Positions 3,001-20,200 of a stretch of 64,000 nt of DNA are shown in pieces. How positions within the stretch are numbered: position 1 is the first letter of the stretch; every line of letters starts with the position of its first letter. The DNA comes from Candidatus Oxydemutatoraceae bacterium (GTDB lineage: Bacteria; Pseudomonadota; Gammaproteobacteria; Poriferisulfidales; Oxydemutatoraceae): positions 1,676,769 through 1,740,768 of the forward strand of contig OZ244779.1 of NCBI GenBank assembly GCA_965219575.1. The letters are read 5' to 3'. Under the pieces are notes generated by a model that saw only the letters and a list, made by a program, of their open reading frames with translations, was not told where the DNA came from and did not search any database. The position numbers and the translations under genes were made by a program.

Positions 3001-6000
3001 TGAACGCGACCATCGGTGCCGGCAAACCTGTTTCCCAAGAAACCGCCTATATTCGGTCCGCTTGCCGATACACTGCCTATGGAGTAACTATCGGCAATTA
3101 ATCCGTTTGTTTCGTTTTGCCATAGATTGCCGATGAAACCACCCACTTGGTTTATGCCGGTAACCGAACCGCTTGCATAGCTATTCCTAATGACGGTATT
3201 GTTTAATTTTTCACCTACAAAACCTCCGATAGCCCTAGTACCGTCGGTAGTGCTCATCACATTACCGGTTGCATAGCTATTTCTGATTTCACCCCTTCTT
3301 TGCACACCGACGAAACCACCGGAAAAACCGACTGCCGAAACGCTGCCGGTCGCATAACTGTTGATAATCAAATTGGGAGTATCGTCGGCAAGACCGACCA
3401 AACCCCCGACTGCCGTGTTTCCGGTGACATCGACGCCGGCGTAGCTGTTGATAATCCAGCCCGAACGAAGATGCGCACCGACCAAACCGCCGATGTTATT
3501 GCGTCCGTTGATCTCGCCGGTTGCATAACTGCCGATGATGGTACCTCGGTTTGCACCTGCCAGCGCACCGCTATAATTATTGCTACCGACATCTATTCTG
3601 ACATCGGTCAAACCGAGGTTGCGCACCGTGCCGGTGATACTACCGAACAGACTTTGATCGTTGTCATTTCTATTGATTTGCAAATTGGATATTACGAAGC
3701 CGTTGCCGTCGAAGGTGCCGGAGAATCGGTTAGCATCGGTGCCTATGGGTTGCCAGCCGAAGTTGGTTTGACCGTCAAAGTTCTCCGGCCTCGTCCACCA
3801 TAAAGGTCTGTTTGTTGCCGCATCTTCATAACTGGCATTATTGCCGAAGTCCAGATCTCTGAGCAGGCAATAGCTACCGTCTCGGCGGTTGCGTATTTTG
3901 TTAAGGTCTTCCAAAGTGTTGATCGGCGTGAAATTACTCAACTCCGAACACTCTCTCGTTTCAACGACATCGGCGACGACGACACGGTTGAGAATGATCG
4001 ACTGGCGCACCGTTTGACTACTCTTGACTTCTATTACGAGGTGGCGCATCGGTTCGCCGGCAGTCAGAGTCAATGCCCTGCTAGGTTCGCCGCTGGCTAG
4101 ACCGGATTGCAATAGGCTCCCGTTTGCATCGTAGATATCAATGACGGCATTGTCCTCGAAGGCGGTGGCAATCAGGCGAATCTCGGAAACCGACGCAGAT
4201 ACCCGGATGTTGCCCGAATAACTGCCACCGGTGAACGGCGGCGATAGGGTGCCGTTGACTGCCGTTAAAAACCGCAAGCCGCGACGCAATTCGGGCGCGA
4301 TCAGCGTGCCACATTCGGGGGTGTCCGGCGTGCCGCACGCCGGTTGACCGGCGAGGTCGGGGTTCGGTGCATGTTTGAGGACCGGGTATTGAGCATCGCT
4401 ACCGAAATCCCAATCGTCGGGCTCCCAACCGAAATATACCCCGTCGGTGTTACTATACTGTGCAATGCCGGTCCGTAGCTCTGCCGTTGTTTTGCCGTTG
4501 CCGCCGGCCGAGGTTGACACACCGCCGGCGATTGTATCCCAGTAACTCGCGTCGACGGTAGAAGAAACTGCGAGCCGACCGATTAATCCCCCGAGTGGAA
4601 AAGTGCTGGGAAGACTAGGTCTCACCACCCTAACCGTTGCATAACTGTTGCGTACGCTACTGTCCTGTCGCTGAAAACCGACCAACCCACCGACAGAGGC
4701 ACCGATGTTAGCAGGATTATTGAGGGAACCTTGCGCATAACTATTGACGACTTGGCTCGTATTCTCCAAACTCCCTACCAATGTTCCTGCATGATTATCA
4801 CTATTGTTTGTGGTGACATCGGCAACCGCATAACTATTGATAATCCTAGAGGCTTGTACATGACCGACCAACCCGGCAACATGAAGCATGCCGCTGGTAA
4901 TTCTACCGATGGCATAGCTGTTGATAATCAGACCGTTCTGCGACATTCGCCCGACCAAAATAGCGGAAGCACTGAGTCCCCTAGAGACATTCGAGGAACG
5001 GACTATATCCATGAACGCACCGCTGTTGATAATCTCTCCGCCTAAGTTCTCGGCAACCAAACCGCCTATTAGATTACTTGCCGTGCCGGCGGCGGTTATT
5101 TCACCCTGCACATAGCAATTAACGACCGCGCCGCTATTGATTACCGCTAGACCGGAGAGTCTTTGACTAATCGACGGCGATCCCGCTATCTCTAGACCTG
5201 CTATGCGGAGGTTGCGTATCACACCCGAATTGGCGGAGAATAAACCTTTGTCACCGGTTGCCGCACTATTCATTCGTAAATTGTAGAGCGTGTTGCGGTT
5301 GCCTTCGAAAGTGCCGGTGAACGGGGTGCTACGATCTCCTATCGCTCTCCAGCTGTCGTTGTCTTCAAAATCCAAGTCTCTCATCAGTTCGTAGCCGAAG
5401 CAACCGCTGTCGGGACACCCGCCGCTTAGCTCGTTTGCCGTCGCGCGCGCTCTATAACCGCTACCGGATAGCTCGTAGCGGATTGCGTTCAACGCCTCCA
5501 AATCGTAAATCTCTATCAGACCGTCGCGGTCTTTATCTACGATTGCAGTCGGTGTCTGCGCTGTTAGAGTGTTATCGTAGCCTTGCCGGTCTATATAGTA
5601 TATTTGCAGGCGGTAGCGAGCAGTGTCTACTTCGTGCGTGCCGACATCGAATGTCGCATCGGTTGCTCCGTCTATGCCGATCCAGCTATCGGCTTCACCG
5701 GTTTCGCTGAATTGCCATTGATATAGCCGACCTTGTTCGGCAATCGAGCCGACACCGTCGGCATCCGCGGCGATGACTTCCTCAAAACCCGGCGAGTGCA
5801 ATAACGAAGTGCCGTTCACGAAGGCTAAGGGAGCCAAAACCGGACTGCCGTTATCCATTTTGGCAACGACGAGCTGCTCGGAGCCAATATCGCGGTTGCC
5901 GAAGCGACCGTCGCTTATCTCCACACGCAGTGTTGCAATACGCCCGGTTTCGGTTATTGATGCCACGAAATCGCCGGCTATTGTTAGATCGAAGTCGGGT

Positions 6001-9000
6001 TGGTTTATGGTGATGCCGGTGTCTAGACCGTCCATCAACAGCGGCATCTGCGGTGCGGTTTGTCTCCACATGTAAGTTAAGGGAACGATCTCATCGGTGT
6101 TGCTCGCTACATTGAAGCGCACCGTTTGACCTTCTCTCACCTGCCTGTTGCTCGGATCTACCGTCACGCTCGCAGCGAAGCTACGGAGGATTTTCATACT
6201 ATAATTTCGGGCAACGATTAGCTCGGTCGACGCAGGTGTCGCATCGAGGCTGATCGATAGATCGTTATCGCTACCGGTGACCGTAATTGGGTTGGCTTCG
6301 TCGCCGACTTTTAAGACCGTGAATGTAGCATCGTTATCGCTTGCGGCAACATCCAAGCTAATCGCAGTCGGGTTGTCGCCTACCACCACATAGTAGTTGT
6401 TAATCTCGGGGGTGAACTCGGGAACCAATGTGAAGCCACCGTTGACCGCTAGGGTGACTATGCGAGCGACTTGTTGCCTTAGGGCGGTGCCGTCGACATC
6501 GCGCAGTATCGGGTATTCGGTGGTGGAACCGAAATTCCAGTCGTTGCGACTCCACAAATAAAAAGCATCGGATACCTGCTCGCCGGGCGCAACCGCTGCC
6601 TTGAGATCGGCAATGCCGCGACCACCGTCGCTCGTCGTGATACCGGCCTCGATGGTATCCCAATAGCTACGCACTACGCGACCCGAATTGATACCGACCA
6701 AGCCACCGACATCATCGCCGCTGCCGACCACCCGCCCGGCAGCATAAGCGGTGCGAACTTCGCCGCTGTTCTCGCCGATCAAACCGCCGACGCGATCGGC
6801 ACCGACGACCGAACTCAACGCATAGCACAGCTCCACCGTGCTGCCGAATTTCCTGCCGACCAAACCGCCGACTCTATCGGCACCGGAAACCTGCGGATTG
6901 ACCGCATAGCTACTGCGTATCATTCCATTGTCGGCTCTACCGACCAAACCACCGACATTGTTCACATCGTTGTCTATGCCGGGGTCGTCGCTGTTGTCTC
7001 CTACGACCGAACCCGTCGCATAGCTGAACATAATACCGCCGCCGAACGAATAACCGACTAAACCGCCGACACCGATGCCGGTGCCTCGTATATCGCCGCT
7101 CGCATAGCTGTTTTCAATTCGGTTGTTCTCGGCGGTGCCGACCAAACCACCGACATTCGAAACACCTACTACAACGACAGTCGCATAACTGTTGTTGATC
7201 GTGCCTTCGTTATTCATCCCGATTAAGCCACCGACATCGGTGTTACCGACGACCATGCCGCTCGTGAAACTACCGACGACGACGCTCCCGGTTTCGTCTA
7301 CAGTACCGATCAAACCGCCGACATTGTCGCTACCGTCAATGCCGATTTCGGTTGCCGAACAGTCGGCTAGGCGCTTGCCCGCATAAAAACCGACCAAACC
7401 GCCGACATGCGTATTGCCGGAAACCTCGATGTCGTTTGTCGTGCTGTCGGTAATCGTGTTGTCGCTATAGCCGACCAAACCGCCGACATGCGTATTGCCG
7501 GAAACCTCCATATCGTTTGTCGTGCTGTCGGTAATCGTATTGTCGCTGTAGCCGACCAAACCGCCGATGTAGTTGACCCCGCCAACCGCACCGCTTGCCG
7601 AATTATCGGTCAAGCGGAAGGTCTGCAGACTATCGGCTGCGATAACTTCTTCGGACGACGGACAACGACGGCTGCCGGTGATGCTCAAACACGCATAGCC
7701 GATCAAACCGCCGGCATAATCGCCGGCTACCAACACATCGGCACTCACATTGTTGCCGACGATAGAACCGATGGTGTAGCCGACCAACCCCCCGACATAA
7801 CCGTTGCCGTGTATGTTGCCTCTGATATCGTTGCCACCGAGGATGCGCCCGGAATTGAAACCGACCAAACCGCCGACCCGCTCACCACCCAGCACATCGG
7901 TCGATGCAAAATTATCCGATACGATGCCGAAGTTGTCGCCGATCAAACCACCGACGGTATTGCCGTCGCGTATCACCGTCGCAATCTGCTCCGCCGCCTC
8001 GCAGTTGCTCGTCGCGCGGTTATCGCGACAACGGCTTTCAAAAATACCGCCGGCAACTTGTTCCAGCAGTATATTGTTGTTGACCACGGTGCCTCTGTTG
8101 ACGGCAACCAACCCTCCGACGGTTCCGACACTGCCGATTACACGACCACGCACGACATTAACATTACTCACGATGCCTTCGTTGACGGCAACCAAAGCAC
8201 CGACCTGCGACCGGCCGGTGATATTCGAACGTAACAATGTTAACGCATTGATTTGTGCTGTCGGCGCAGTGTGTGCGAAAAACCCGACACCGTCTACCGG
8301 ACGGTTGATATAGAGGTTCGAAATCGTGAAACCTCTCGCCTCGAAGTAGCCGGAAAACGGACTCGCTCTCGTGCCGATCGGCTGCCAACCCAAACCTTCG
8401 TTCCACTCCCGATTGATGCGACCGGCAAGATAGCTTCCGGCATCGCCGAAGTTTAAGTTCCTCGTTAACTCGTAGCCCCTGCAGACACCGTCGTTGCCTT
8501 CGGCGTCTTCGGCACAACCTCGGTTGAACAACGGCGCAGTGGGGCTTGCCCTATAGCCACTTCCGTCCGGAACATATCGGATCGCATTCAAGTCCTCTAA
8601 ATCGCAAATTTCTATCAAGCCATCGTCGTCCACATCGATATCGACGGCATAGCCACAGTTGCGATCTACGATAACGACCGAGATCGCAGCCGTCTCGCCG
8701 AAGCTGTAATTTGCTCCGTCTCTCGGCTCGGCGATGCTTAAATCTAAACGGCTGGAGACCGTCCTGTCGCCGGGGTCGGTATTTCTGGTGGGGATGCTCA
8801 GCGCAAGTCGGGTGCTACCGGCGGGAACGACGACCGTCCTCATACCCTCGAGTTCGTCGGGGACGAGATCGTTGTTGCCCTCTTCTTCTACCCTCAGAGT
8901 AACCGAAATGTTTCTATTAGTCACCGCATCGAGCGTTATCGCATAGTTTATGGTGTCGCCTTTGTAGACCGCAGACGGCGCACTAAGAGATACGGATTGC

Positions 9001-9080
9001 GCAAATACTTCACCAGCCAGTAGTACGAACGATACAACGATAATCCAAAAATAGCTACTTGGCGGTTTCATATAAAGCAT
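1..9080 (-). CDS. Giant GLUG-repeat / cadherin-like surface protein, paralog B (3' partial; runs off the left window edge, >3,026 aa)
   Basis: ATG at 9080-9078 gives MLYMKPPSSYFWIIVVSFVLLAGEVFAQSV..., near-identical to the start of 11273-57553. Bases 50..3 read LISPQLRYGLLEDILV in the same frame. The ORF track lists no terminated minus-strand ORF in this frame. Five W-x4-W[DN]FG-x3-[QE]YP module ends occur at ~6530, 4405, 2855, 1350 and 160. Confidence 0.92.
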   Translation of the reverse strand, partial: MLYMKPPSSYFWIIVVSFVLLAGEVFAQSVSLSAPSAVYKGDTINYAITLDAVTNRNISVTLRVEEEGNNDLVPDELEGMRTVVVPAGSTRLALSIPTRNTDPGDRTVSSRLDLSIAEPRDGANYSFGETAAISVVIVDRNCGYAVDIDVDDDGLIEICDLEDLNAIRYVPDGSGYRASPTAPLFNRGCAEDAEGNDGVCRGYELTRNLNFGDAGSYLAGRINREWNEGLGWQPIGTRASPFSGYFEARGFTISNLYINRPVDGVGFFAHTAPTAQINALTLLRSNITGRSQVGALVAVNEGIVSNVNVVRGRVIGSVGTVGGLVAVNRGTVVNNNILLEQVAGGIFESRCRDNRATSNCEAAEQIATVIRDGNTVGGLIGDNFGIVSDNFASTDVLGGERVGGLVGFNSGRILGGNDIRGNIHGNGYVGGLVGYTIGSIVGNNVSADVLVAGDYAGGLIGYACLSITGSRRCPSSEEVIAADSLQTFRLTDNSASGAVGGVNYIGGLVGYSDNTITDSTTNDMEVSGNTHVGGLVGYSDNTITDSTTNDIEVSGNTHVGGLVGFYAGKRLADCSATEIGIDGSDNVGGLIGTVDETGSVVVGSFTSGMVVGNTDVGGLIGMNNEGTINNSYATVVVVGVSNVGGLVGTAENNRIENSYASGDIRGTGIGVGGLVGYSFGGGIMFSYATGSVVGDNSDDPGIDNDVNNVGGLVGRADNGMIRSSYAVNPQVSGADRVGGLVGRKFGSTVELCYALSSVVGADRVGGLIGENSGEVRTAYAAGRVVGSGDDVGGLVGINSGRVVRSYWDTIEAGITTSDGGRGIADLKAAVAPGEQVSDAFYLWSRNDWNFGSTTEYPILRDVDGTALRQQVARIVTLAVNGGFTLVPEFTPEINNYYVVVGDNPTAISLDVAASDNDATFTVLKVGDEANPITVTGSDNDLSISLDATPASTELIVARNYSMKILRSFAASVTVDPSNRQVREGQTVRFNVASNTDEIVPLTYMWRQTAPQMPLLMDGLDTGITINQPDFDLTIAGDFVASITETGRIATLRVEISDGRFGNRDIGSEQLVVAKMDNGSPVLAPLAFVNGTSLLHSPGFEEVIAADADGVGSIAEQGRLYQWQFSETGEADSWIGIDGATDATFDVGTHEVDTARYRLQIYYIDRQGYDNTLTAQTPTAIVDKDRDGLIEIYDLEALNAIRYELSGSGYRARATANELSGGCPDSGCFGYELMRDLDFEDNDSWRAIGDRSTPFTGTFEGNRNTLYNLRMNSAATGDKGLFSANSGVIRNLRIAGLEIAGSPSISQRLSGLAVINSGAVVNCYVQGEITAAGTASNLIGGLVAENLGGEIINSGAFMDIVRSSNVSRGLSASAILVGRMSQNGLIINSYAIGRITSGMLHVAGLVGHVQASRIINSYAVADVTTNNSDNHAGTLVGSLENTSQVVNSYAQGSLNNPANIGASVGGLVGFQRQDSSVRNSYATVRVVRPSLPSTFPLGGLIGRLAVSSTVDASYWDTIAGGVSTSAGGNGKTTAELRTGIAQYSNTDGVYFGWEPDDWDFGSDAQYPVLKHAPNPDLAGQPACGTPDTPECGTLIAPELRRGLRFLTAVNGTLSPPFTGGSYSGNIRVSASVSEIRLIATAFEDNAVIDIYDANGSLLQSGLASGEPSRALTLTAGEPMRHLVIEVKSSQTVRQSIILNRVVVADVVETRECSELSNFTPINTLEDLNKIRNRRDGSYCLLRDLDFGNNASYEDAATNRPLWWTRPENFDGQTNFGWQPIGTDANRFSGTFDGNGFVISNLQINRNDNDQSLFGSITGTVRNLGLTDVRIDVGSNNYSGALAGANRGTIIGSYATGEINGRNNIGGLVGAHLRSGWIINSYAGVDVTGNTAVGGLVGLADDTPNLIINSYATGSVSAVGFSGGFVGVQRRGEIRNSYATGNVMSTTDGTRAIGGFVGEKLNNTVIRNSYASGSVTGINQVGGFIGNLWQNETNGLIADSYSIGSVSASGPNIGGFLGNRFAGTDGRVQNSYWNTETSGLSNSERGSGLDTQQMQSPTAPDAASPTRYTGWSTDNWDFGTNRQYPRLKYARNPDSSGRRTCSDAGGDGLPVCGSLIAPKPSYDLNELSVSPGRFSPRLNFNGRLSDYRTHVVGVGADNTIRLIVGSQDAGARFRALRGEDNTALVSEFGAGELSEEIILEDGENHIVVELTPSDPSARKRRYNFRLSYRVPRTPIEINTLEDLDALRNNPTGTYRLTRNLDFEDASSYRTRRVNSDWTVDDFGAAGDDGWQPINNFTGTFDGNGFAISNLQIKVGDADTVAVGLFGTIGVRGTVKNLILNDADVRASNSAAVQVAALVGHNRGLVLNSGVIASIVEGVGNTRGGGNHNYIGGLVGRNGLGSNDIAYIGNSFVVDSEIRVNPAVANATHHIGGLVGRNFYAEIYNSFVQATTVAGYCHVGGLIGNQFGPSSTIKNSYADVTLASSTESCRIGARGKLLGLVNGGVIENSYATGSSPGVTNLLGAQISSRASGFPPLIFNDSYSDSGASAGDARGRTTMQLQMPTAAVGLYENWSDEIWDFGTESEYPRLKYTAGPFGNVCDVAGAPDCGTLISPPRSYAVSDPGPVDLVIEIDSLEDLYRIRNNPNARYLLTRSLDFLDNESYKDLVNKAAWTVDDFNDTLDQGWQPIDNFSGSLDGNGFVISNLQINRSNINQGLFGSITGIVRNLGLTDVNINIEGTNIGALVGANRGTVIGSYAIGEVAGTDHVGGLVGAHLASGWIINSYAAVDVTGNTSVGGLVGIAEGTTPNLVINSYATGSVSAEGLSGGFIGLFSSGEIINSYATGRVRVTDVTTNEHVGGFVGEKSDNAVIRNSYATGAIAAGDASDVGGFAGLSSGANTISDSYAIGNVSAIGSAIGGLIGSGSGTARNSYWDTQTSGRATSAAGSGLTTEEMQSPTAPSATSPLRYTDWNPDDWDFGTDRQYPTLKYRANPSSDGPQSCNADGSDGLPICGSLISPQLRYGLLEDILV
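7390..7567 (-). repeat. 81-bp (27-aa) tandem duplication of one GLUG unit in paralog B
   Basis: ccgaccaaaccgccgacatgcgtattgccggaaacctc occurs at 7390 and 7471; the homologous site in paralog A (~55944-56040) has a single copy. Confidence 0.9.
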
Positions 9081-9105
9081 GTCATAGGCGAAAACTGATA
9101 GTAAA

Positions 9106-9114
9106 ATTATAACA
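9106..9114 (-). promoter_or_regulatory. Extended -10 promoter element (TGTTATAAT) for paralog B
   Basis: Perfect TGnTATAAT about 25 nt upstream of the ATG; the same 9-mer sits at the equivalent position upstream of paralog A. Confidence 0.65.
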
Positions 9115-9187
9115 TTTTCTAACCCGTAATAGGCGATTCTTGTGCTGACATTGTTGCACATTAACACTGTAGCTATGCAGACACGCA

Positions 9188-9396
9188 GGGCTGTTGAAAA
9201 AGTATCGCTCGGCACGATTTATACATTCATCCACCCGATTTATGGAAACCAAACCCAAACGGCGCAAGCGGTTGAGCTTGTGCAGAATGGTATCGTTTTG
9301 GGCAGACACACAGGTCTGCCCCTACGACTTTGTGGTTATCATACATGTGGCGCAAAGCGGTTGAATTCGTGCAGAGCGATACTTTTTCAACAGCCC
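9188..9396. mobile_element. ~209-bp MITE-like element with 30-bp terminal inverted repeats and an internal GTAG-type REP hairpin
   Basis: Left end gggctgttgaaaaagtatcgctcggcacga (9188-9217) and right end tcgtgcagagcgatactttttcaacagccc (9367-9396) are 29/30 complementary. Internal gggcagacacacaggtctgcccctac (~9300-9325) is the reverse complement of GTAGGGGCAGAC-N-GTCTGCCC. No transposase is encoded. Confidence 0.75.
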
Positions 9397-9444
9397 CCCC
9401 TTAGCGACCACCCCGTCAGGTGCAATAGCCCCATGTTCTTGGCA

Positions 9445-9999
9445 TTAGTTCACCAAAAGCACGGCCACACTGAGAATAGAACATACCGAAACAAAAATGC
9501 CGATAGCGAGCCCAACACCCCATTTATAAATGTCATCTCTCAATTTAGATTGATCTCTTGCAATGGTTGCAATGTCCCTTTTCATTTCTACAATATCAGC
9601 TTTTATATTCAAGATGTCGGTTTTCATAGCCGCCATATCAACTTCAACATTGTTTAGTCTCAGTTCTATACTTTTTATATCGGCTTTGATATTTACAATC
9701 TCGGATTCAACATTGCTTAGTCTCAGTTCTATACCTTTTATATCGGCTTTGATATTTATAATCTCAGAATCAACATTGTTTAGTCTCAGTTCTATACTCT
9801 TTATATCGGCTTTCATATCTGCGATGTCGGTTTCAATATTGTTTAATCTCGGTTCTGTACTTTCCGTGTATAAACCTGCTTTGTCCGACTGTGGGGCATG
9901 TGTTTCCGATTCTAGAGAGTCTAGCTTTGACTTCATTTCGAGCACCATTTCATAAATAGTTTCAATCGTCAATTTATCTACATTTTCTATATTTTCCAT
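9445..9999 (-). CDS. Coiled-coil repeat protein with C-terminal transmembrane anchor (DUF1640/CCDC90/Bdr-like), 184 aa
   Basis: GAGG ribosome-binding site and a TATAAT upstream. 21-aa heptad repeats RLNNxExxIxxxKADIKxIEL. Ends ...DIYKWGVGLAIGIFVSVCSILSVAVLLVN (hydrophobic tail after KW). AT-rich compared with the flanking genes. Confidence 0.75.
   Translation of the reverse strand: MENIENVDKLTIETIYEMVLEMKSKLDSLESETHAPQSDKAGLYTESTEPRLNNIETDIADMKADIKSIELRLNNVDSEIINIKADIKGIELRLSNVESEIVNIKADIKSIELRLNNVEVDMAAMKTDILNIKADIVEMKRDIATIARDQSKLRDDIYKWGVGLAIGIFVSVCSILSVAVLLVN
9610..9849 (-). repeat. 63-bp (21-aa) tandem repeat, about 3.8 copies
   Basis: RLNNIETDIADMKADIKSIEL / RLNNVDSEIINIKADIKGIEL / RLSNVESEIVNIKADIKSIEL / RLNNVEVDMAAMKTDI. 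Confidence 0.9.
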
Positions 10000-10211
10000 T
10001 TTTAGCCTCTTCAGTTGAATTATAAGAAAGAGCCTGCTTTATAGCAAGCCGTCTAATCGTAATCGGATTATAAATTCGGCTATAGGGTGCTTTTTCGCGT
10101 TTCCGATGAACAGCACTAAAAAAATGGATGAATGGTAAAAGCTATTATGTACACTCGGTTTTGACTCCCATAAATCAATGAGAAAACGCGTTAATCGTGC
10201 AGACCCTCAGA

Positions 10212-10506
10212 GGCTGTTGAAAAAGTGTGGATATCGTATAAATCCAACCGCTGTGCGCCATTTAGTTTTGGTTTCCATAAATCGGGTGAATGAATGTATA
10301 AATCTTGCAGATACGACGGGGCTGTTGAAAAGTATCGTTGCACAACCGTAGCCGCTTGCGCCATGAATTTATGCAAACCACCGAGTCGTAGGGGCGGACT
10401 GGCATGTCCGCCCGAACACGCGTCATGTTTGCACGAACCCAACCGCTTGCGCCATTTGGTTTTGGTTTCCATAAATTGGATGAATGTATAAACTGTGCTG
10501 ATACGC
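10212..10506. mobile_element. Two partial copies of the MITE/REP element family
   Basis: ggctgttgaaaa ends at ~10212 and ~10320. REP hairpin gtaggggcggactggcatgtccgccc at ~10388. The conserved block aaccgcttgcgccattt.gttttggtttccataaat..gatgaatgtataaa occurs twice. Confidence 0.65.
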
Positions 10507-11260
10507 AGCAACCACCCCGTCAGGCTGAATAGAACCGCCGATTGAACCGGTAGGTCAATCGGCAACTCTGATGTCTGCCCTTAAGTACCGTTCTGCACGA
10601 CACCAACCACTTGCGCCATTTTGTTTTGGTTTCCATAAATTGGATGGATGAATGTATAAATCGTGTAGGCACAACGCGTTACGGGCGGACATGTTAGTCC
10701 GCCCCTACAGGTGGGTTGGATAATTATGCGGCGCAAGCGGTTACGGTTTTGCAGAACAGTATTTTTTCAACAGTCCCCCTTAGCAACCACCCCGTCAGGC
10801 TGAATAGAACCGCCGATTGAACCGGTAGGTCAATCGGCAACTCTGATGTCTGCCCTTAAGTACCGTTCTGCACGACACCAACCACTTGCGCCATTTTGTT
10901 TTGGTTTCCATAAATTGGATGGATGAATGTATAAATCGTGTAGGCACAACGCGTTACGGGCGGACATGTTAGTCCGCCCCTACAGGTGGGTTGGATAATT
11001 ATGCGGCGCAAGCGGTTACGGTTTTGCAGAACAGTATTTTTTCAACAGTCCCCCTTAGCGACCACCCCGTCAGGCTGAATAGAACCGCCGATTGAACCGG
11101 TAGGTCAATCGGCAACTCTGATGTCTGCCCTTAAGTACCGTTCTGCACGACACCAACCGCTTGCGCCATTTGGTTTTGGTTTCCATAAACTGGATGAATA
11201 AATGTATAAATCGTGCCGGCAAACGCGTTGTTACGGGCGGACATACAAGTCCGCCCCTAC
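10507..11260. repeat. 275-bp tandem repeat (two apparently identical units plus a diverged partial third) built from MITE/REP parts
   Basis: Units start at 10507, 10782 and 11057 (agc[a/g]accaccccgtcaggctgaatag). Each has a ccgattga/tcaatcgg hairpin and a REP hairpin gggcggac-N6-gtccgcccctac. The two full units end in a TIR-like ttttttcaacagtccc. Confidence 0.92.
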
Positions 11261-11272
11261 GACTTGGCGGTA

Positions 11273-14200
11273 CTACTGGAGAGGGCCTTCTAAAAAGACT
11301 TTGGCGCGGATGCGTATCGCATCCGTCGCCGAGACTCGCGACAGAGTCACGGTATAGGGTCGGCTATCCCCACTCTGTGCGGTCACCTCTATGGTAATAT
11401 CTCTGCTCATTCCGGGATCAATAGAAACCCTGAGGCTTGCCGATTGCATTGCGCGACCCGAGTCTATCGTTCCGTCTCGGATCACCAGTACTGTATTTTC
11501 GGCGTTGACCGTCGCAGTGAGCGTTGTACCGGCTATGTCGTTAGGCAACTCTACGGTGTAGTTGATGCGTTGGCTTTCCGAGGTCTCGTCAAATATAAAT
11601 TCCGGCACTACACCTTGAGATGTACTTAGCATACTCAACCTCGTATCTTGATTTTGCTCGCGGTCGATAGTCACGGTATAGGCTTTAGTCGTCTGTCGGT
11701 CTTCGGCAAGCACGACAATTCTAGCTACCCTAGTCTGGCCTTCGTTCAACGAGAAAGGGTCATCAATATTTGCCGATTGCATGTTTATCATAAAGCTCAT
11801 AATTTCGGCAATGGGATGTTCACGTTCCGCTTGTACTCTAATATTCCGTATCTTATCACCGACTATCGGGTTAGGAATCGTATAGACATAGTTGGCACTC
11901 GTCGCCAGGTTGTCGAATTCGATAAGTGGACCTGCTCCCGAAGCGGGCAGGATATTCAAAGTTTGCAAGTTGGCATTATTGCTCACCTCGCGAGTCGCAC
12001 GCACTACATAGTTACTCGTCGTCACACCCGGTGCGCTAAGTGCCACGACAATCTCTCTAGTCTCTCTCGTCCGTTCTACGGGAAACGGAATCGTAGCACT
12101 CCCGTCGGTTAAGTTTTGCAATCGGCGGTCGACCGATATCGTATATGTAGTGTTGCTTTCGCCGTCCGGCAATACCGGACTCACAACCAGATTCCCACCC
12201 TCGCTTGCCACTGCTACCTCATAGCTTCTCACCGAAGCATCAAAATTATAAGGATCATCCGAACTAAGTCCGGTCAAATCTAGACTCTGCAGGGTTAACG
12301 GACGGAATATATTGACGGTATAGGTCGCTTCGGTAAAGCCGTCGAGAGTGCTATCAGTGCGTCTTACAACGAGGGTGATTCGGTTCTCACCTCTTGCCAG
12401 CGGAATAGCTAGAGAAATAGAGACAGTGGCATTTGCATTCAGCGACACAGTATCACGATTCAAAGTATAGTTGAAGGAGTTACTACCTATGCGAATACTC
12501 CGAATACGCACCCCGTCGATATCCACCGATGCCGTTGCCGTAGTGGCTACGATATCCCCACCCGAGAGTGTGCCTATGTATTCGGTTCCCGAATCGTCTT
12601 CGGGGTCTTCGGTTAAGGTGATACCGGACATTTGAAGCATAAACCCTAGCGCAGCTCTATCGACTGGCGAGTCGCGATAGAGCGTCACGGTATAAGTCTG
12701 CGTACTGCCGCTCTGTGCGGTCACATCTACGGTGACCGATTTACGCGCACCGGGGTCGACCTCAACTCTCAAACTCGGTCCCAGCGAGATAAGGTTTCCT
12801 TCTCCGTCTCTGATTGACAATTTTGCATTTGCAGCGTTGACCGTCGCAGTGAGCGTCGTACCGGCTATGTCGTTAGGCAACTCTACGGTGTAGTCGGTGC
12901 GTTGGCTTGCCGAACGCTCGTTGAATACGAATGTCGGTGCCAATGAACCCGGTGATACACCGAGCGTCCTCAGTCTCGTATCTTGATTTTGCTCGCGGTC
13001 GATAGTCACGGTATAGGCTTTAGTCGTCTGTCGGTCTTCGGCAAGCACGACAATTCTAGCTACCCTAGTCTGGCCTTCGTTCAACGAGAAAGGGTCATCA
13101 ATATTTGCCGATTGCATGTTTATCATAAAGCTCATAATTTCGGCATTGGGATGTTCACGTTCCGCTTGTACTCTAATATTCCGTATCTTATCACCGACTA
13201 TCGGGTTAGGAATCGTATAGACATAGTTGGCACTCGTCGCCAGGTTGTCGAATTCGATAAGTGGACCTGCTCCCGAAGCGGGCAGGATATTCAAAGTTTG
13301 CAAGTTGGCATTATCGCTCGCCTCGCGGGTCGCACGCACCACATAGTTACTCGTCGTCGCACCCGGTGCTACGAGTGCTACGGTAATGTCCTTAGTTTCA
13401 TTGACATTGAATGGAATTGTAGCACTTCCGTTAGCGGCTTGTGTCACCTCCTCGTCGGCATCAAATATCGTATATTCTACGATACCGTTATCTCTATCGA
13501 GCAGTACCGGACTCACGACCAGATTGTCGCTATCGCGTGCCACCGTCACCGTATAGTTGCGGGTAAAGGCATCAAAACGATAAGGGTCATCGTCGCTAAG
13601 CCCGTCCAAACCTAGTGTCTGCAAAATCAGCGGACGAATGACGGTTGCGGTATAGGTCGCTTCGGTATAACCGTCCTCGGTGCTATCGGTGCGTCTTAGG
13701 ACGAGAGTGATGCGGTTGGCACCTCGCTGCAATGGAATAGCCTTGGAAATAGGAGCAGAAGCTGCATTTGCGCTTAAATCTACCGGATTATCGTTCAAGA
13801 TATAGTCGGTGCCACCCAAAAGGATGCTCCGAATACTTACACCGGCGGCGGTCGCCGCTGCCGACGCTACGGTTTCGGTCGCGGTGCTGATCAGTTCGCC
13901 GCGATATTCGGTTTCGGAGTCACCCTCCGGATCAAGTTCCACATCGCTCATTCGAAGCATAAACCCTAAGGCACTTCGGGTCACCGATGCGGCTCGGGAT
14001 ATCACCACGGTATAAGTTGTGATTGTTCGATCCTGTGCGGTTGCCGAGATGGTAATGTCTTTGCTCATTCCGCGATTAACCGGAACCGTTAGGCTTGCCG
14101 ATTGCATTGCGCGACCCGAGTTTCTCATTCCGTCTCGGATCACCAGTGTTGCGTTCGCATTGGCGGCGGTTGCACTCAGTTCAACATCTTCGGTGTCGTT

Positions 14201-17200
14201 AGGCAACTCTACGCTATATTTTCTAACCTCTTGAGTTGCCGTCGAAGGGTCAAAGTCGAATTGCGGCATTAATTGACCCGACGATACCGCTAGCGTACTC
14301 AGCCGGGTATCTCGGCTCGGTGCCCGCACGATAGTCACCGTATAGGTTTTCTGCACGCTACGCTGTTGTGCGGTCACCACAATTCGGGCGCGCTTAGTCT
14401 CACCTTCGGCTAGAGAAATGTTCTCATTTATCCTATTGACACCCATAACTCTTGGGGGGGTGTCTTCGCCTATCGTAAGACTTAGCGTCGCATCGGGATG
14501 TGCGGCTTGCGCTTGCAGACTAACACTCGTTATCTTGTCACCGACGATCGGGTTGGAAATTCTATACTCGTAGCTATCACGCATTGCCAAATTTTCAAAG
14601 CCGGTAGGCGCACCTCGGTTCGGCACGATATCCAAAGCACTCAAGTCGGCATTGCGACTGATTTCTCGGGTCGCACGCACCGTGTAGCTATTCGTCACTC
14701 CGTTCTCTGCTTCAACAATGACGGTAATGACTTTCGGCTCTCCGGCGACGAGCGCAATTGAAGCCGCACCTGATTCTAAATCCTCCGCCGCTATCTCGGT
14801 GTTTTCGTCGCGGATCGTATACACGACATTATTACTTTGATCTATACCGGACAATACGGGTCTCACAACGAGGCGTTTATTCTCGTTTGCAATCGTGACC
14901 GTATAGCTACGCGTAGAGGAACCGAAACGATAAGGATCATCGGTCCTAAGTCCGGTCAGACGCAAATCCTCCAAAATCACCGGACGAATATCGGTTACGG
15001 TATAGCGTCGGGTGGTCTCACCGGCTTCTGCGGTTACGACGATTTCAATCGTATTTTCTCCGTAAGCTCGGGTAATATCGTATGTGTTAGTAGGATTGGG
15101 GGTAAACAATCTACCGCCGGGATTATCAATGTCGCGGTTGCGTTGCCTAACTTCAATCTGTTGCCCGCGTTGGATATTCACACCCAGCACAAAGTTGTTT
15201 CCGCTAAGGTCTTCTATCTCGTAATCCTCTACATTGCCGGCAAAGTTCGGATTTAAGCGACCGGGTGACAATACAATATCATTCAATTCGGCTTCGGTGT
15301 TTCTGAGGGTTATCAGCACGATATAGTCTTGGGTGGTCCGTCGATCTTGTGCGGTCACGACGATGGTAATCGTCGTCGTCCGATCCTCGGTCACCGCGAT
15401 CAGCGAACTCTGTCCACTCTCGGCTATGACTTCGCCGCGATCGCGCCCCGGTGCAAAAACTTCCACTTTATCTACATAGGGCTGTGCGGTCGGTCTCACT
15501 CTAACACCGGTCACACTATCGCTGAACGATGCCGAATATCGACCGCCATTGCGCACGCTATCAAAAATCACCAACGACGCAACCTCAAACGACGATTGCG
15601 GCAATAATTCCAATGCCGACAAACGCGCATCGGTACTGGGTGCCCGATCTACCGTCAAGGTGTAATCCGCGCGGTCGTCTTCGCTACCGGATTGTGCGGT
15701 TATCGTAATTCGCAATACCATGCGGTCGCCGGGATCGTCTAAGGTGATGCGTGCTTGTGCTACACCCACTGCCCTTCCGACCTCCGTATTGCTTGCATCG
15801 GTAATCACCACCGTTGCAAATTCGTCGCCGGCGGTCACGGTTACGATGCTACTCGTCGTCGCTTGGTTTAAGGTCGCGTTATAGGTTCCGTCACCGTTAT
15901 CTACGACCGATGCATCAACCACAGTAATATCTGCCAAGCTCGCATCGCTACTCGGGTCACGACTTAGCTCCAAGGTATAGCGTTCGATCGTCTCACTATC
16001 CTGCGCAGTCACTACGATGATCAGGGTTTGGGAGGTACCGGTATCGGCAATGGTCACTTGCCTGCCGAGCATGTTGCGAGCGGAATTCGTCTCTCCGTCC
16101 AAAGTGATTGCCACAGTCGCTTGCGAATGGGTCGTTGTCACGGTCACGGTCGTATTCGATGTGTTTTCGTCTAGGCTCCTACGGTAAATCCCGTCTCTAC
16201 CCACCGTTATAGTATCGCCACCGACAATGACACTTGCCAAACTCGCATCCGCACTGCTCACCCGAATTATCCGTAGGCTATAGGTCGCAGATGTAGTCTG
16301 ATTTTCGGCAATCACTTTGATCGCTATGGTTCGCTCCGGTGTATCCAAGTCGGCGCGCAGCGTGATGAGCTTATCGGGCATAGATTCCGGCGTACCGCCG
16401 TCTATACTAACCGTCGCCTCTCCGTCTTCGGCACGCGGCGATACCACGATTCGCATTATGTCTTGAACCTCAAGCCCGGCTATCCCCATGATACGCGCCG
16501 AGTAGGTTCTCTCTCCTTCTTCGTCGGGTGATGTCAATGTAAGCAGACGACGCATATTGTTATCCAACGAAAGCGCAATGCTCGCTAAGTTTGCATTGCT
16601 ACGGTCGGCTTCGGCGCGGGTCACGGCTACGGTATAACCTCGGGTCGTGCTGTCGTCCTGGGAGCTGACCGTGATGCGAATGAGTTTTTCTATTTCCGGC
16701 ACCGTCAAATCAAAGGCCCTGTCAATCGTGCCGGTTGCGACCTCCTCTTTACCGTCTATGACCACTTCGATTCTCGCACGCGGATGGGCTTCGGCAATCA
16801 CCCGAGTGCCGGTGGTGGCATTCGGAACCGCAAAGCTATAGACCTGTGTTCTGCTCGTAGGATCAAAGCCCGGCAGTAGGTTTGCATCGTTTGCATCCAG
16901 CAACCGTAAATCTCTCAAATCGGCATCCGAACTCTCGGCGCGGTTTATGGTCACGGTATAAGTCTCGCTCGTCGCACCGTTTTGTGCAGTCACCTCAATC
17001 CGAACTTGTGCCGAACCGCCTTCGTCTATGGATATAGGGATCGTGCTGTCGGCACCGCTTTGCACCCGTTCACCATCGGCATCCCCCGGTGCGTGTACAT
17101 CGATGACCGCTTGGCTGTTTTCGGCAGTCGGGCGAATCAATACTTGTGCCACCGAATTGGCTATATTGAAAGACGGTCGGGTCTCATTACATCCAATGTC

Positions 17201-20200
17201 CTCGTTCACCAACGATCGGCTATCGTCTGCGTCTAGAATTGCTATCGCATCCAGACAATCGTTAGTGCTTTGTGCGCGGGTGACGGTCAAAGTATGGTCT
17301 TTGAACACCTCACCGTTCTCCGCAATCACGCGGATCAGCAAGTCTCTACGGTCGCCGGTCTCGGCGAGGGTGATATCCACCATCCCCTGTTGTCTTGCAC
17401 TCACCAGCCGGGTATTGTTTTCGCTGATTGTCACCGTTGCTAATTGATCGCCGGCAACGGCGGTCACGGTCGCATTCATCACACTCTCGGCTACGGTTGT
17501 GCTATACATCGGTGGGTCGCCTTGCGGTATCAAGCTATCCGCACCCGGCGACACACGCAACGATGCCAAGTTTGCATTCGATCCCAGTATAATCCTTGCC
17601 GTCAACTTATAATCTTCGGTCATGCCGTTTTGCGCGGTCACGGTAATAGTAATCTCTCGTTGTGCCACCGCAATGTCGTTAAGACCCATTGGAACACCTA
17701 TCGGGATGTTGGTTTTCGTAGCAGTCCGACCACCGATTGCATCCGCGCCACCATTAATACTAATCGTCACCGTCGCACTGGAATGTGCTGCCGTCGCCGA
17801 CACCGAGAACGAGGTTACACTTCTGTCAATCACCGCAGTATATTCGCTATCGCTTCCCGAAACTGCGGTTGCCGTAGTCTCACCGACACCGGGGATGATG
17901 ATTATCGGTGCGCCACTCAAGCGGGTATCGGAACTGAGCGCGCGACTTATATTGAGTCTATAGCGGTTTATCGTTTCTCCGTCGGATGCGGTCACTTTAA
18001 CCTCAATCGTATTTCGACCGACACCTAAACGCAGGCTCGTATCGAGACATTCAATCGGGGAGTCGCTCTCGGCACCGGCAACTTTGCTAATCTCGACAGT
18101 CGCCTCGCCGTATTGATCATCCTGTAGTGCTTGTACTAAAATACAATCTATTGCACTTTCAACAGTGGGAAGCGTGTACTCCAGTGTGTCGGACATAAAA
18201 TCGCTCACACCTAAGGATCGAGAGGGTCTCTCTTCCGAAGTGGAAGACAGTGTGTAGAGTATACTTCGCAACCTGGCATTTTTACTCGACAGCCGATCGA
18301 CAGTCAACTTATAGGTTTGCGATGTGACTCCGTCGTGAGCAATTATTTTCAATTCTATTTCGTTTTCACCTATGACAAAAAGCGGTTCGCTTTCGGGTCG
18401 ATCTCTGGTAACCGAACCCGTCTCCAGTCCGCTTAAACTCAACGGTATACCGTTCCATAGAATGGCGGTGATTTTGGTGTCCTGCGGTGTCACCCTCAAG
18501 CTGACGGTTCTTTGATCGTTGGCAACCTCGACGGTATAGTTCTGTGTCGTCGGGTTAAACACACTTAGCACATTGATATCGTCGTCGTTCAGCACTTGCA
18601 AGTCTTGCAATTCGGCATCGGTACTTCTGAGACGAGTAATCGTAAGCGTGGTAGCTTGTTGTGTTCCCAATGCCGAAGTGGCGATCACCATCGTATTGTC
18701 GTCGTAGTTCAACGGCACCGATACGATTTTCTCTATCCTATCGGCAAGCACTCGGGTATCGGTCGTAGTCGGTGCAATGTCCGCTCTCAGTTCGGACACG
18801 ACTTGCAGATCGGTTGCGAATGTCACCCTAACTTGCGATGTCTCGGTGGGAACGACTGCGGTATAAATGTGCTGCGTAGAAGCGAATGTCGGCACCAAGG
18901 TGACCGTAGTCGCCGGTGCATAAGTCAATACCAAGTCCTGCAAATCCAAGCTGTATTCACGCACAACGACGAGCGTATAAACGGTGTCGGTTTCACGCGG
19001 TGCCTGCACTCTAAGTGTTATCGTGTTATTGCCGATATTCAGCGGTGAACTATCAACCCGATTACCGTCGACCTCCACATCGTTGACGAGCACCGTGGTT
19101 CCCTCTTTGCGCTCGAATTCTATGGTCTCGGAACCCCGCTCGTTGGCGATGGTCGCAAAATATCGGGGCACTTCGGGATCGAATTCTCTGCCGAAGTCGG
19201 TCCCCGCCAATCTTAGACTTCTCAATCGGGTATTGTATCGACGCCAAACATTTACGCTATACATGGCAACTTCCGGGTCCGCGAATGACCCGCCCGGTGC
19301 CGTCACCGTGAACGCAATGCCGTTTTCTCCCAAAGCCAAGCCACCGATCGTTGCTTGCGCAACCAGCAAGCCGGCTTGCGTCGAGGTCGTAATCTCACCG
19401 ACCGTATTGCCGTCGGATGCGATAACAATATCCACCAACTCGTTGACGCTCGCAATCACCGTGATGGTGCTTATCGCGTTGGGAATATCCGGTCGCATCC
19501 GTAGATCGGCACCCAAATCTCTGATCTCGGTGCCGTCCTCACCTTGCCATTCAACGCGCCAGCCTCGTATCGCAACATCGTAGCCACGAAAGACCGTATA
19601 GGTTCGGGTGCTGGTGTCGTCTTCACCCTGCGATACGATAGTGATTTCGTTGTCGCCGTATTCCAAATCCAGGGTTGTTGCAATTTCATCGGCAAGCGGC
19701 ACACCGTTCACCGAGATTGCGCCGCCGATTGCCGTCACACCGAGGTGCTCGACTTCGGTCGGCACGCGATAGTTTCGCACCTCAAAGTCGAAGTCCGGCG
19801 ATAAATCGTCGGCAGCCAATTCCACGAAGATAAAGCCTTCGGTATCGGCAACCAGTGTCTCTCTCAGCACCAATCCGGTAGATGCTCGTTGCGGTGGAGA
19901 TGCAATCGTCCGGCTATAACCTTGCCCGTCTGTGTAGCTCACCACCACTCTGTAATGATCGGCAACCTCGCCGACGACGGTATAGCCGATACCGTTCGCA
20001 TTATTAATGTCCGTCCAGTTGCCTCCCGATCGTTGCTGCCACCGGTATGCGACAGCGCGAGGATCGCCGGCACCGTCGGGGTCTTCCGCGAGCTTGTCTC
20101 TATCCAGTGTCGGGGCGGTATAAGTAAAGCCTACCTGTGTCGGTGTCGTGATGCCGTCTATTGTGCCGTTATCGTACTTTGCCACACTAAACGAGCGTGC

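Follow-up and report, generated by a model that had tools for sequence, protein, structure and literature searches.

A recurrent C-terminal peptide on giant exported proteins of a sponge-associated gammaproteobacterium as a candidate sorting or anchoring tag

Sec-dependent adhesins of megadalton size that reach the Gram-negative surface are, to our knowledge, understood only for type IX secretion in Bacteroidota. The locus described here raises the question of how such proteins are sorted and held in a gammaproteobacterium, and whether a short peptide at their C-termini takes part. The window analyzed is the whole stretch of 64,000 nucleotides from contig OZ244779.1 of a Candidatus Oxydemutatoraceae bacterium (assembly GCA_965219575.1, positions 1,676,769 to 1,740,768 of the forward strand). 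It contains gene A, a single open reading frame (ORF) of 15,426 codons that ends in a peptide of 14 residues, IRIRAKVFLEGPLQ, hereafter the tag. An earlier reading of the window, made from the sequence only, had proposed that this tail is an unrecognized sorting or anchoring signal. In the present analysis the tag was followed through the genome and its relatives, and compared with known signals and machinery. The reading favored here, which we regard as evenly poised, is that in a family of sponge-associated gammaproteobacteria the tail serves as a trans-recognized, C-terminal tag for surface sorting or anchoring.

The C-terminal tag of gene A and its recurrence in the genome

The gene A protein ends in ...RPYTVTLSRVSATDAIRIRAKVFLEGPLQ, followed by TAG (Table 1). 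The core of the tag opens with two to three hydrophobic-basic pairs ([hydrophobic-basic]x2-3), which lead into [VIL]F[LP]EG, and three more residues complete the protein. At its other end, the protein begins with a Sec-like sequence (MLYMKPPSSYFWIIVVSFVLLTGEVFA, with QS after the cleavage site), as judged by eye and with a hydropathy heuristic, no trained predictor being used. The protein is acidic (11.4% D+E versus 7.1% K+R), whereas in the tail three residues are basic and one is acidic. Pfam models placed GLUG repeats near the N-terminus and Cadherin-like domains (PF12733) up to the tail; no two-partner secretion (TPS) domain, beta-barrel or sorting-domain model matched gene A, and its 15,426 residues hold no GGxGxD nonapeptide. 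The sequence-only reading had already noted the basic tail after an acidic protein, the Sec signal and the lack of RTX nonapeptides, TPS domain and beta-barrel, and all of these observations held, the motif count and Pfam agreeing on the last three. Contigs of three independent public runs (X1, X5 and X6) cover the tail, the stop codon and the DNA beyond; they show 0, 0 and 2 differences, and 11222-11358 is free of them. Since tail and stop codon are identical in the contigs of the three runs, the stop is not an assembly error.

The genome comprises 2,369,097 bases, and simple gene calling gave 2,006 ORFs. Across the whole genome, 37 ORFs terminate in the strict form [VIL]F[LIVM][EQ]G[PAS]L[QR]-stop. 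The tag or a close variant (...VFLEGLLQ, ...VFLEGFLQ, ...VFPEGLLR or ...LLEGALTR) ends 50 of the called genes, which together code for 165,158 residues and occupy 20.9% of the genome. A loose six-frame regular expression gave 72 matches; the last motif letter immediately preceded a stop codon in 49, stood 2-10 residues before it in 12, and was internal in 11. The back-translated DNA pattern for KVFLEGPLQ-stop matched 32 times in this genome, and a reversed-pattern control had no matches in all 41 genomes searched. The recurrence of the tail is far above chance.

The carriers are otherwise unrelated to each other, and include giant GLUG/cadherin-like adhesins, Calx-beta proteins, kexin-like proteases and small Ig-like proteins. 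Nearly every giant protein of the genome is among them: paralog B (16,068 codons, ending in ...AIRIRAKVFLEGPLQ), a tandem third gene (13,356 codons), others of 15,535, 12,744 and 7,908 codons, and a set of five with about 5,800 codons each. A Pfam scan of 21 proteins found GLUG, Cadherin-like, Calx-beta, Big_2/Big_9 and subtilase S8 plus P-domain architectures ahead of the tag, as well as proteins of no family. Most tag proteins are unnamed in the source annotation, and several belong to no family at all.

A hydrophobic N-terminal segment ending in ...[AGS]Q, which places Gln at position +1, was recognized heuristically in 42 of the 50 tag genes; the remaining eight are mostly N-truncated ORFs or wrong start calls. 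The same lenient test was passed by 71 of 281 other signal-peptide candidates. The tag appears to be confined to exported proteins. Gln at +1 recalls the 'Q-rule' of Bacteroidota. The genome has a glutaminyl cyclase gene (PF05096, 302 bits), also found in genera g1, g2 and g3; it is missing from the tag-bearing genera g4 and g5, and was rejected as a partner of the tag.

C-terminal pieces of 24 giant proteins from five species were aligned. Their bodies are 21-64% identical and the tag is invariant; a spacer of variable length, from 0 to about 12 residues, separates it from the last YTVxxxR strand. Using this alignment, AlphaFold2 modeled the last 230 residues of gene A as two beta-sandwiches (mean predicted local distance difference test score, pLDDT, of 86.7). 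The last strand comprises residues 201-210, and the last domain has a pLDDT of 92-96; residues 211-230, which include the tag, were modeled as coil, with a block-mean pLDDT of 68-69 versus 95-96 just before. Because the last strand ends before the tail and the tail is coil, the tag is not the terminal strand of the Ig domain, an outcome that the sequence-only reading had allowed for and that the variable spacer also speaks against. In a family of small tag proteins (174-199 residues, 17 members) the bodies are 36-56% identical, and there is hardly any variation in the signal peptide MKYLRRYLIxAGLCLLLVCSANVASAQ or in the tail KVFLEG.LQ. The tail of a small tag protein was modeled with a pLDDT below 50. 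A fold search with this model returned generic Ig-like matches only (TM 0.3-0.4), and a complex prediction with three copies of the protein gave no answer (score 0.00), which is evidence neither way. On these models and alignments, the tag is a modular peptide that is conserved at the protein level and lies beyond the last folded domain. Drawn as a strand, it is amphipathic: one face carries I, I, A, V and L, the opposite one R, R, K and F, and E-G comes next.

The 37 strict tags use several codons at every degenerate position, including GTA/GTT/GTC/GTG for Val, TTA/TTG/CTG/CTC/CTA for Leu, GGT/GGC/GGG/GGA for Gly and CCG/CCT/CCC for Pro. Their stop codons are TAG (19), TAA (14) and TGA (4), and the DNA 3' of the stop varies from one tag gene to the next. 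As codons and stops vary and the amino acids are constant, selection acts on the protein. A nucleic-acid element or accident (a shared cassette that recombines at the 3' end, a sequence derived from a terminator or repeat, or truncation by an adjacent repetitive extragenic palindromic, REP, element) might be suspected, since a REP-like hairpin begins 6 bases past the stop of gene A and a similar hairpin follows many tag genes. However, third-codon positions and stops are free to vary under fixed amino acids, the sequences downstream of tag genes are unlike each other, and the tag is kept across genera despite different DNA. With gene-specific downstream DNA and synonymous codon variation, an origin as a repeat, terminator or truncation is effectively refuted, and with it the possibility, raised in the sequence-only reading, of a remnant left by the adjacent repeat.

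Distribution, variants and position of the tag

Forty-one relatives were searched; genera g1-g5 are members of family f1, and f2-f4 served as comparison families. The strict DNA pattern, applied to one genome per species (185,579 species), gave 26 matches, all in three other Candidatus Porisulfidus records, and none in a metagenome contig collection. With a tail profile, each of the other four species of the genus gave matches (28, 17, 21 and 18). At E<=0.01 a narrow profile matched in 13 of the 41 relatives, all of family f1, and in none of the 22 genomes of f2-f4. With a broader profile, 1.84 billion representative proteins yielded 79 matches at E<=0.001: 73 reach the last residue of the protein, five stop no more than four residues short of it, and the remaining one is internal and due to chance. 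The sequence-only reading had linked the tail to an internal domain of Bacteroidota surface proteins starting with KVFLEGP[YF]. This link found no confirmation: the 1.84-billion-protein search returned only C-terminal tags like the present one, although proteins of one sister genus do end in ...KVFLEGPYEYR. The features which that reading had associated with a sorting signal were all observed: the motif is not unique to gene A, is enriched at C-termini both in the six-frame search and in the profile search, is carried mostly by signal-peptide proteins, and ends paralog B as well.

The exact form of the tag is limited to Candidatus Porisulfidus, with genus-specific variants in sister genera of the same family. 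Giant GLUG proteins end in ...RLRLR[IVL]FLEGPLR in g3 and in ...LRLKVFLGGMVR in g5; g4 has ...VRVRVFLEGPLQ, ...RVKVFLEGALE and ...RIKVFLEGALN, and g2 has a longer form, ...VNVKVFLEGPYEYR. Exactly three residues follow the Gly in most genera (g1, g3, g4 and g5). The final residue is Q, R, E, N, K or L across all variants, and differs between genera (Q, R, E, N). The tag evolves genus by genus. The motif strings were not found in the literature searched. The passages found on Porisulfidus do not mention these proteins, and titles and abstracts on sponge symbionts, Thioglobaceae and adhesins offered nothing relevant.

The genome has three kexin/furin-like subtilases with a P-domain. Two of them terminate in the tag; in the third, a leucine-rich repeat (LRR) domain follows it. 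The closest solved relatives of a tagged subtilase are kexin (4.6e-35), furin (2e-29) and Aeromonas ASP (5.4e-29). Among 120 listed homologues, a terminal tag was found in 66 by regular expression and in nine more by eye (with variants such as ...KVYPEGLLSE and ...KVFLEALLE), and an LRR domain followed the tag in 19. These subtilases have many paralogs, nearly all ending in the tag, with at least 10 paralogs in some related assemblies.

Copies away from the C-terminus occur elsewhere too. In two near-identical paralogs of 1,750 residues the tag precedes a propeller-like region (recognized by eye) and FN3 and LRR domains, and in a protein of 1,370 residues it directly follows the signal peptide. 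The gene of the latter lies 270 bp downstream of a tag-ending gene. Given these internal and N-terminal copies, a free carboxyl end is not strictly required.

Conversely, homologous bodies may carry other endings. Nine more distant subtilase homologues have an EF-hand-like tail of about 45 residues in place of the tag; Pfam gave sub-threshold EF-hand matches for these tails and no dockerin model. A giant GLUG protein of genus g2 (G005:C1:1700200-1717200, locus end 12609) has at its end a Gly-rich stretch followed by a hydrophobic helix and RRR, and a protein of 1,484 residues of the present genome (2241568-2246022, beside gspE) ends in a hydrophobic helix and an Arg cluster; NCBIfam matches for both tails were of the MYXO-CTERM/GlyGly type and all sub-threshold. 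Since homologues end in helix-RRR or an EF-hand-like tail, the tag occupies the site of the anchoring modules of other lineages.

Known sorting signals and candidate machinery

Six 40-residue tails had no NCBIfam match at E<=10, and in the 21 proteins scanned with Pfam no model covered the tail. On these searches and the comparisons that follow, the tag belongs to no described sorting-signal family. Like the sortase, PEP-CTERM, GlyGly-CTERM and MYXO-CTERM signals, it is a short signature with which many unrelated signal-peptide proteins of one lineage end, and homologous bodies elsewhere carry other anchors. Unlike these tripartite signals, it has neither a hydrophobic helix nor a terminal basic cluster, only P-L-Q after the Gly. 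No hydrophobic stretch was found in the last 60 residues of gene A (the sortase, exosortase and rhombosortase enzymes were not searched for), and as there is no transmembrane helix the tag is not a signal of the sortase, exosortase or rhombosortase type. The cargo of GlyGly-CTERM signals depends on the type II secretion system (T2SS).

The C-terminal domains of the type IX secretion system (T9SS; type A PF18962, type B PF13585) likewise accompany a Sec signal on very large adhesins and on proteases. They are folded, however, and 70-100 residues long, whereas the tag has 14 unstructured residues, no Pfam match and a gammaproteobacterial host; without a folded C-terminal domain it is not a T9SS signal. 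Dockerin-cohesin pairs are a closer parallel in one respect: a small C-terminal module, which may also be internal, docks many enzymes or adhesins to a separately encoded partner, and the EF-hand-like tail of the distant subtilase homologues sits in the same place as the tag. A dockerin, though, is a duplicated calcium-binding segment of about 60-70 residues; the tag has a fifth of that length and no Asp-rich loop, and the fold matches of the small tag proteins to cohesin are weak and generic. With donor strands, TonB boxes and the beta-signal of outer-membrane proteins the tag shares a short, amphipathic, alternating strand that is disordered until bound. The beta-signal differs in its terminal aromatic residue, which none of the final residues listed above provides, and the chaperone-usher donor strand in that no usher was found in this genome. 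Type I RTX adhesins (of the LapA and SiiE type) are also giant, repetitive and equipped with an uncleaved C-terminal signal, but have RTX repeats and no Sec signal, whereas gene A has a signal peptide and lacks GGxGxD. Finally, the last 230 residues of gene A form two Ig-like sandwiches and coil, and its first 1,000 residues hold no TPS domain; with neither a barrel nor a TPS domain, gene A does not belong to type V.

The window has no transporter gene, as the sequence-only reading had stated; the genome, however, encodes a full T2SS (GspA, B, C, D, E, GspG and GspL, and an apparent gspF-N operon recognized by eye). There are four secretins in all. Besides the divergent cluster described below, further systems are a PilMNOPQ-type cluster and a type III system, the latter recognized by eye in the ORFs that flank the fourth secretin. 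The genome has one Omp85 only. The usher PF00577 was not found in it (the control was positive in E. coli; the chaperone was not searched for), nor was SprA_N of the T9SS (the control matched in none of 14 genomes), and ShlB was not found in five genomes of the genus (with a weak control). All 18 genomes of family f1 have GspC, and none of the 22 genomes of the other families does; at the level of the family, the tag is distributed in the same way. With a T2SS present, GspC distributed like the tag, no usher or ShlB found and a single Omp85, Sec followed by the T2SS would be the likeliest route. At the C-terminus of GspC, PDZ_2 scored 19.2 bits, below its cut-off of 27. When the tag is compared with PDZ ligands, the constant distance from Gly to the end in g1, g3, g4 and g5 stands beside a polar, variable last residue and the existence of internal copies.

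Two further gene clusters were considered as machinery and rejected. A divergent pilus/T2SS-like cluster between the arrays of giant genes codes for a weak secretin match, three unknowns, a GspE-like ATPase, a GspF-like platform protein and a pilin-like protein of 298 residues. Its secretin and its protein of 285 residues occur in 25 of the 41 relatives, tag-free families included, and the 285-residue protein was not found in the tag-rich genome G006. The second candidate was an operon of MotA-like, TolR-like, 580-residue and FGE-sulfatase proteins, the content of which loosely recalls the GldK/L/M set of type IX secretion. All 18 genomes of the family have homologues of the 580-residue protein, as do 14 of 400 genomes sampled from the class, and ten genomes outside the family that have the operon showed no tag match at E<=0.1.

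Table 1. Positions of gene A, the tag and associated features (window positions unless marked as genome positions)
Feature	Position	Strand	Description
Gene A	11273..57553	-	Single 15,426-codon ORF; secreted giant protein, GLUG repeats and cadherin-like domains
Tag of gene A	11276..11317	-	14 codons; alternating hydrophobic/basic stretch, VFLEG, three residues to the free C-terminus
Stop codon TAG	11273..11275	-	Immediately 3' of the gene A tag
Linker VSATDA	11318..11335	-	Six residues between the last domain of gene A and the tag
Last cadherin-like beta-sandwich domain of gene A	11336..11638	-	Pfam PF12733; final strand RPYTVTLSRV
Sec signal peptide of gene A (predicted)	57473..57553	-	27 residues; cleavage after ...VFA, Gln at +1
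Paralog B, 5' part	3..9215	-	16,068 codons from the first start; end outside the window (genome 1637777); GLUG repeats
Intergenic stretch	9216..11272	.	REP-like hairpins and ~240-bp repeats; outside the tag, first hairpin 6 bases past the stop
Three tag-ending giant genes	genome 1597329-1734321	-	13,356, 16,068 and 15,426 codons, head to tail, ~137 kb; window 3..57553 belongs to this array
Five clustered tag-variant genes	genome 1232414-1331804		~5,800 codons each (...FPEGLLR)
Three kexin/furin-like subtilases with P-domain	genome 508145-511405; 374133-376436; ORF ending at 374015		
Two near-identical 1,750-residue paralogs with internal tag	genome 1308319-1313601; 1918093-1923450	+; -	FN3 and LRR by Pfam
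1,370-residue protein with tag directly after the signal peptide	genome 1796419-1800540	-	Two FGE-sulfatase domains
Glutaminyl cyclase gene	genome 1101705-1102412		PF05096
Divergent pilus/T2SS-like cluster	genome 1222786-1231058		Between giant-gene arrays
Operon of MotA-like, TolR-like, 580-residue and FGE-sulfatase proteins	genome 2030351-2035710	-	
Other window genes			HisG, MurA-type enzyme, MlaC, RNase E/G, CysRS

The gap of about 2 kb between the two giant genes of the window contains REP-like hairpins (GTAGGGGCGGAC...GTCCGCCC) besides the ~240-bp repeats. Over the gap (9216-11272) the summed contig depth is hundreds of times that of the gene, and is very high over 11100-11267. The gap also holds an ORF of 184 residues (9445-9999, minus strand) that codes for a heptad-like, repeated coiled coil and a C-terminal membrane helix; it has a close paralog at genome positions 2024584-2025255, and Pfam gave weak coiled-coil matches only.

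Proposed role, rival explanations and meaning

If the tag serves in sorting or anchoring, the tagged proteins would be exported by Sec and their signal peptides removed by cleavage between Ala and Gln. They would then cross the outer membrane through the T2SS, the only Sec-coupled route recognized in the genome besides two pilus-like systems, and the exposed, amphipathic, basic strand would hold them at the cell surface. Retention might occur by beta-strand addition to a partner, or by binding of lipopolysaccharide through the basic and hydrophobic faces. We infer both the T2SS route and the strand-docking mode. Because internal copies exist, a docking strand is a better fit than a signal dependent on a free end.

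Several results weigh against such a role. No receptor or processing enzyme was identified among the candidates tried; of the original proposal, the conserved C-terminal tag proved real, and the receptor that a secretion-machine or strand-docking role calls for did not come to light. The neighbors of 33 tag genes, four genes on each side, include no recurrent partner family; what recurs there are repeat-derived ORFs, DNA methylase-like and ATPase-like proteins (by eye) and pairs of paralogs. The adjacency of a small tag gene to gspF-N was not found in five genomes (G001-G004 and G006). The agreement between tag and T2SS holds at the level of the family only, and shared ancestry could explain it; moreover, the megadalton proteins far exceed any T2SS cargo known to us. 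The non-terminal tags (in the two 1,750-residue paralogs, at one mature N-terminus and in 19 of the 120 subtilase homologues) and the drift of the final residue between genera point in the same direction.

The main rival takes the tag for a processing site, cut by the co-encoded, tag-bearing kexin/furin-like subtilases to release or mature the adhesins or to free the LRR domain. We judge this unlikely, but it has a coherent basis. The relatives of these enzymes cut after basic residues, and in all genus variants observed the residue ahead of [VIL][FYL][LP]EG is K or R, so the tag could be, or contain, such a site; kexin, furin and Aeromonas ASP, to which the tagged subtilase is nearest, are all basic-residue-specific convertases, the many subtilase paralogs nearly all end in the tag, and the internal copies lie at domain junctions. 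The basic residues of the tag alternate (R-x-R-x-K), however, unlike the paired sites that we know for kexin and furin, and the eight residues past the putative cut, which plain cleavage would not need, are the most conserved. We give little credence to a partnerless end-cap, by which a proline-containing polar tail, together with an N-terminal pyroglutamate, would shield the proteins from exopeptidases in the sponge. The prevalence of Gln at +1 in tag genes, the glutaminyl cyclase gene and the failure to find machinery are in keeping with a cap, but fourteen conserved residues in a strict amphipathic, basic pattern exceed what it would need, the cyclase is missing from two tag-bearing genera, and internal copies are not ends.

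Self-association, in which tags would pair with each other or with grooves of the small Ig-like tag proteins to build an adhesin coat in a donor-strand-like manner, strikes us as quite improbable. It would account for the alternating hydrophobic residues, for tails that are unstructured in monomer models and for the several families of small, tag-bearing beta-sandwich proteins; against it stand the missing usher and the generic outcome of the fold search. Very improbable, in our estimate, is an address read by a receptor or uptake pathway of the sponge. We know of no eukaryotic C-terminal motif class that the tag would fit, which counts against a host address, and the genus-specific drift of the last residues suggests, weakly, co-evolution with a bacterial partner. 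What favors it are the eukaryote-like adhesion domains of tagged proteins (cadherin-like, LRR and FN3) and the records of the three closest relatives, which are titled Porisulfidus, described in the abstract of PMC12988363 as a known sponge symbiont.

Returning to the sorting or anchoring signal, a broader version of that reading is conceivable, and we hold it to be doubtful: a new diderm sorting system, with a helix-less strand of 14 residues as the common docking or export signal and a receptor outside the sortase, T9SS, usher and two-partner systems. Such a system might serve about 50 surface proteins, five of them of 12,744-16,068 residues, with perhaps a specialized T2SS as the receptor and kexin-like proteases as releasing enzymes.

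The present findings describe a gammaproteobacterial lineage that devotes a fifth of its genome to giant exported proteins, all marked by one peptide that fits no described signal. The tag supplies a rule by which genome annotators could recognize these proteins. If it is a sorting or anchoring signal, it would offer a handle on a new receptor or secretion step and a portable display tag of 14 residues, and the whole surface proteome of the symbiont would become definable from sequence alone.

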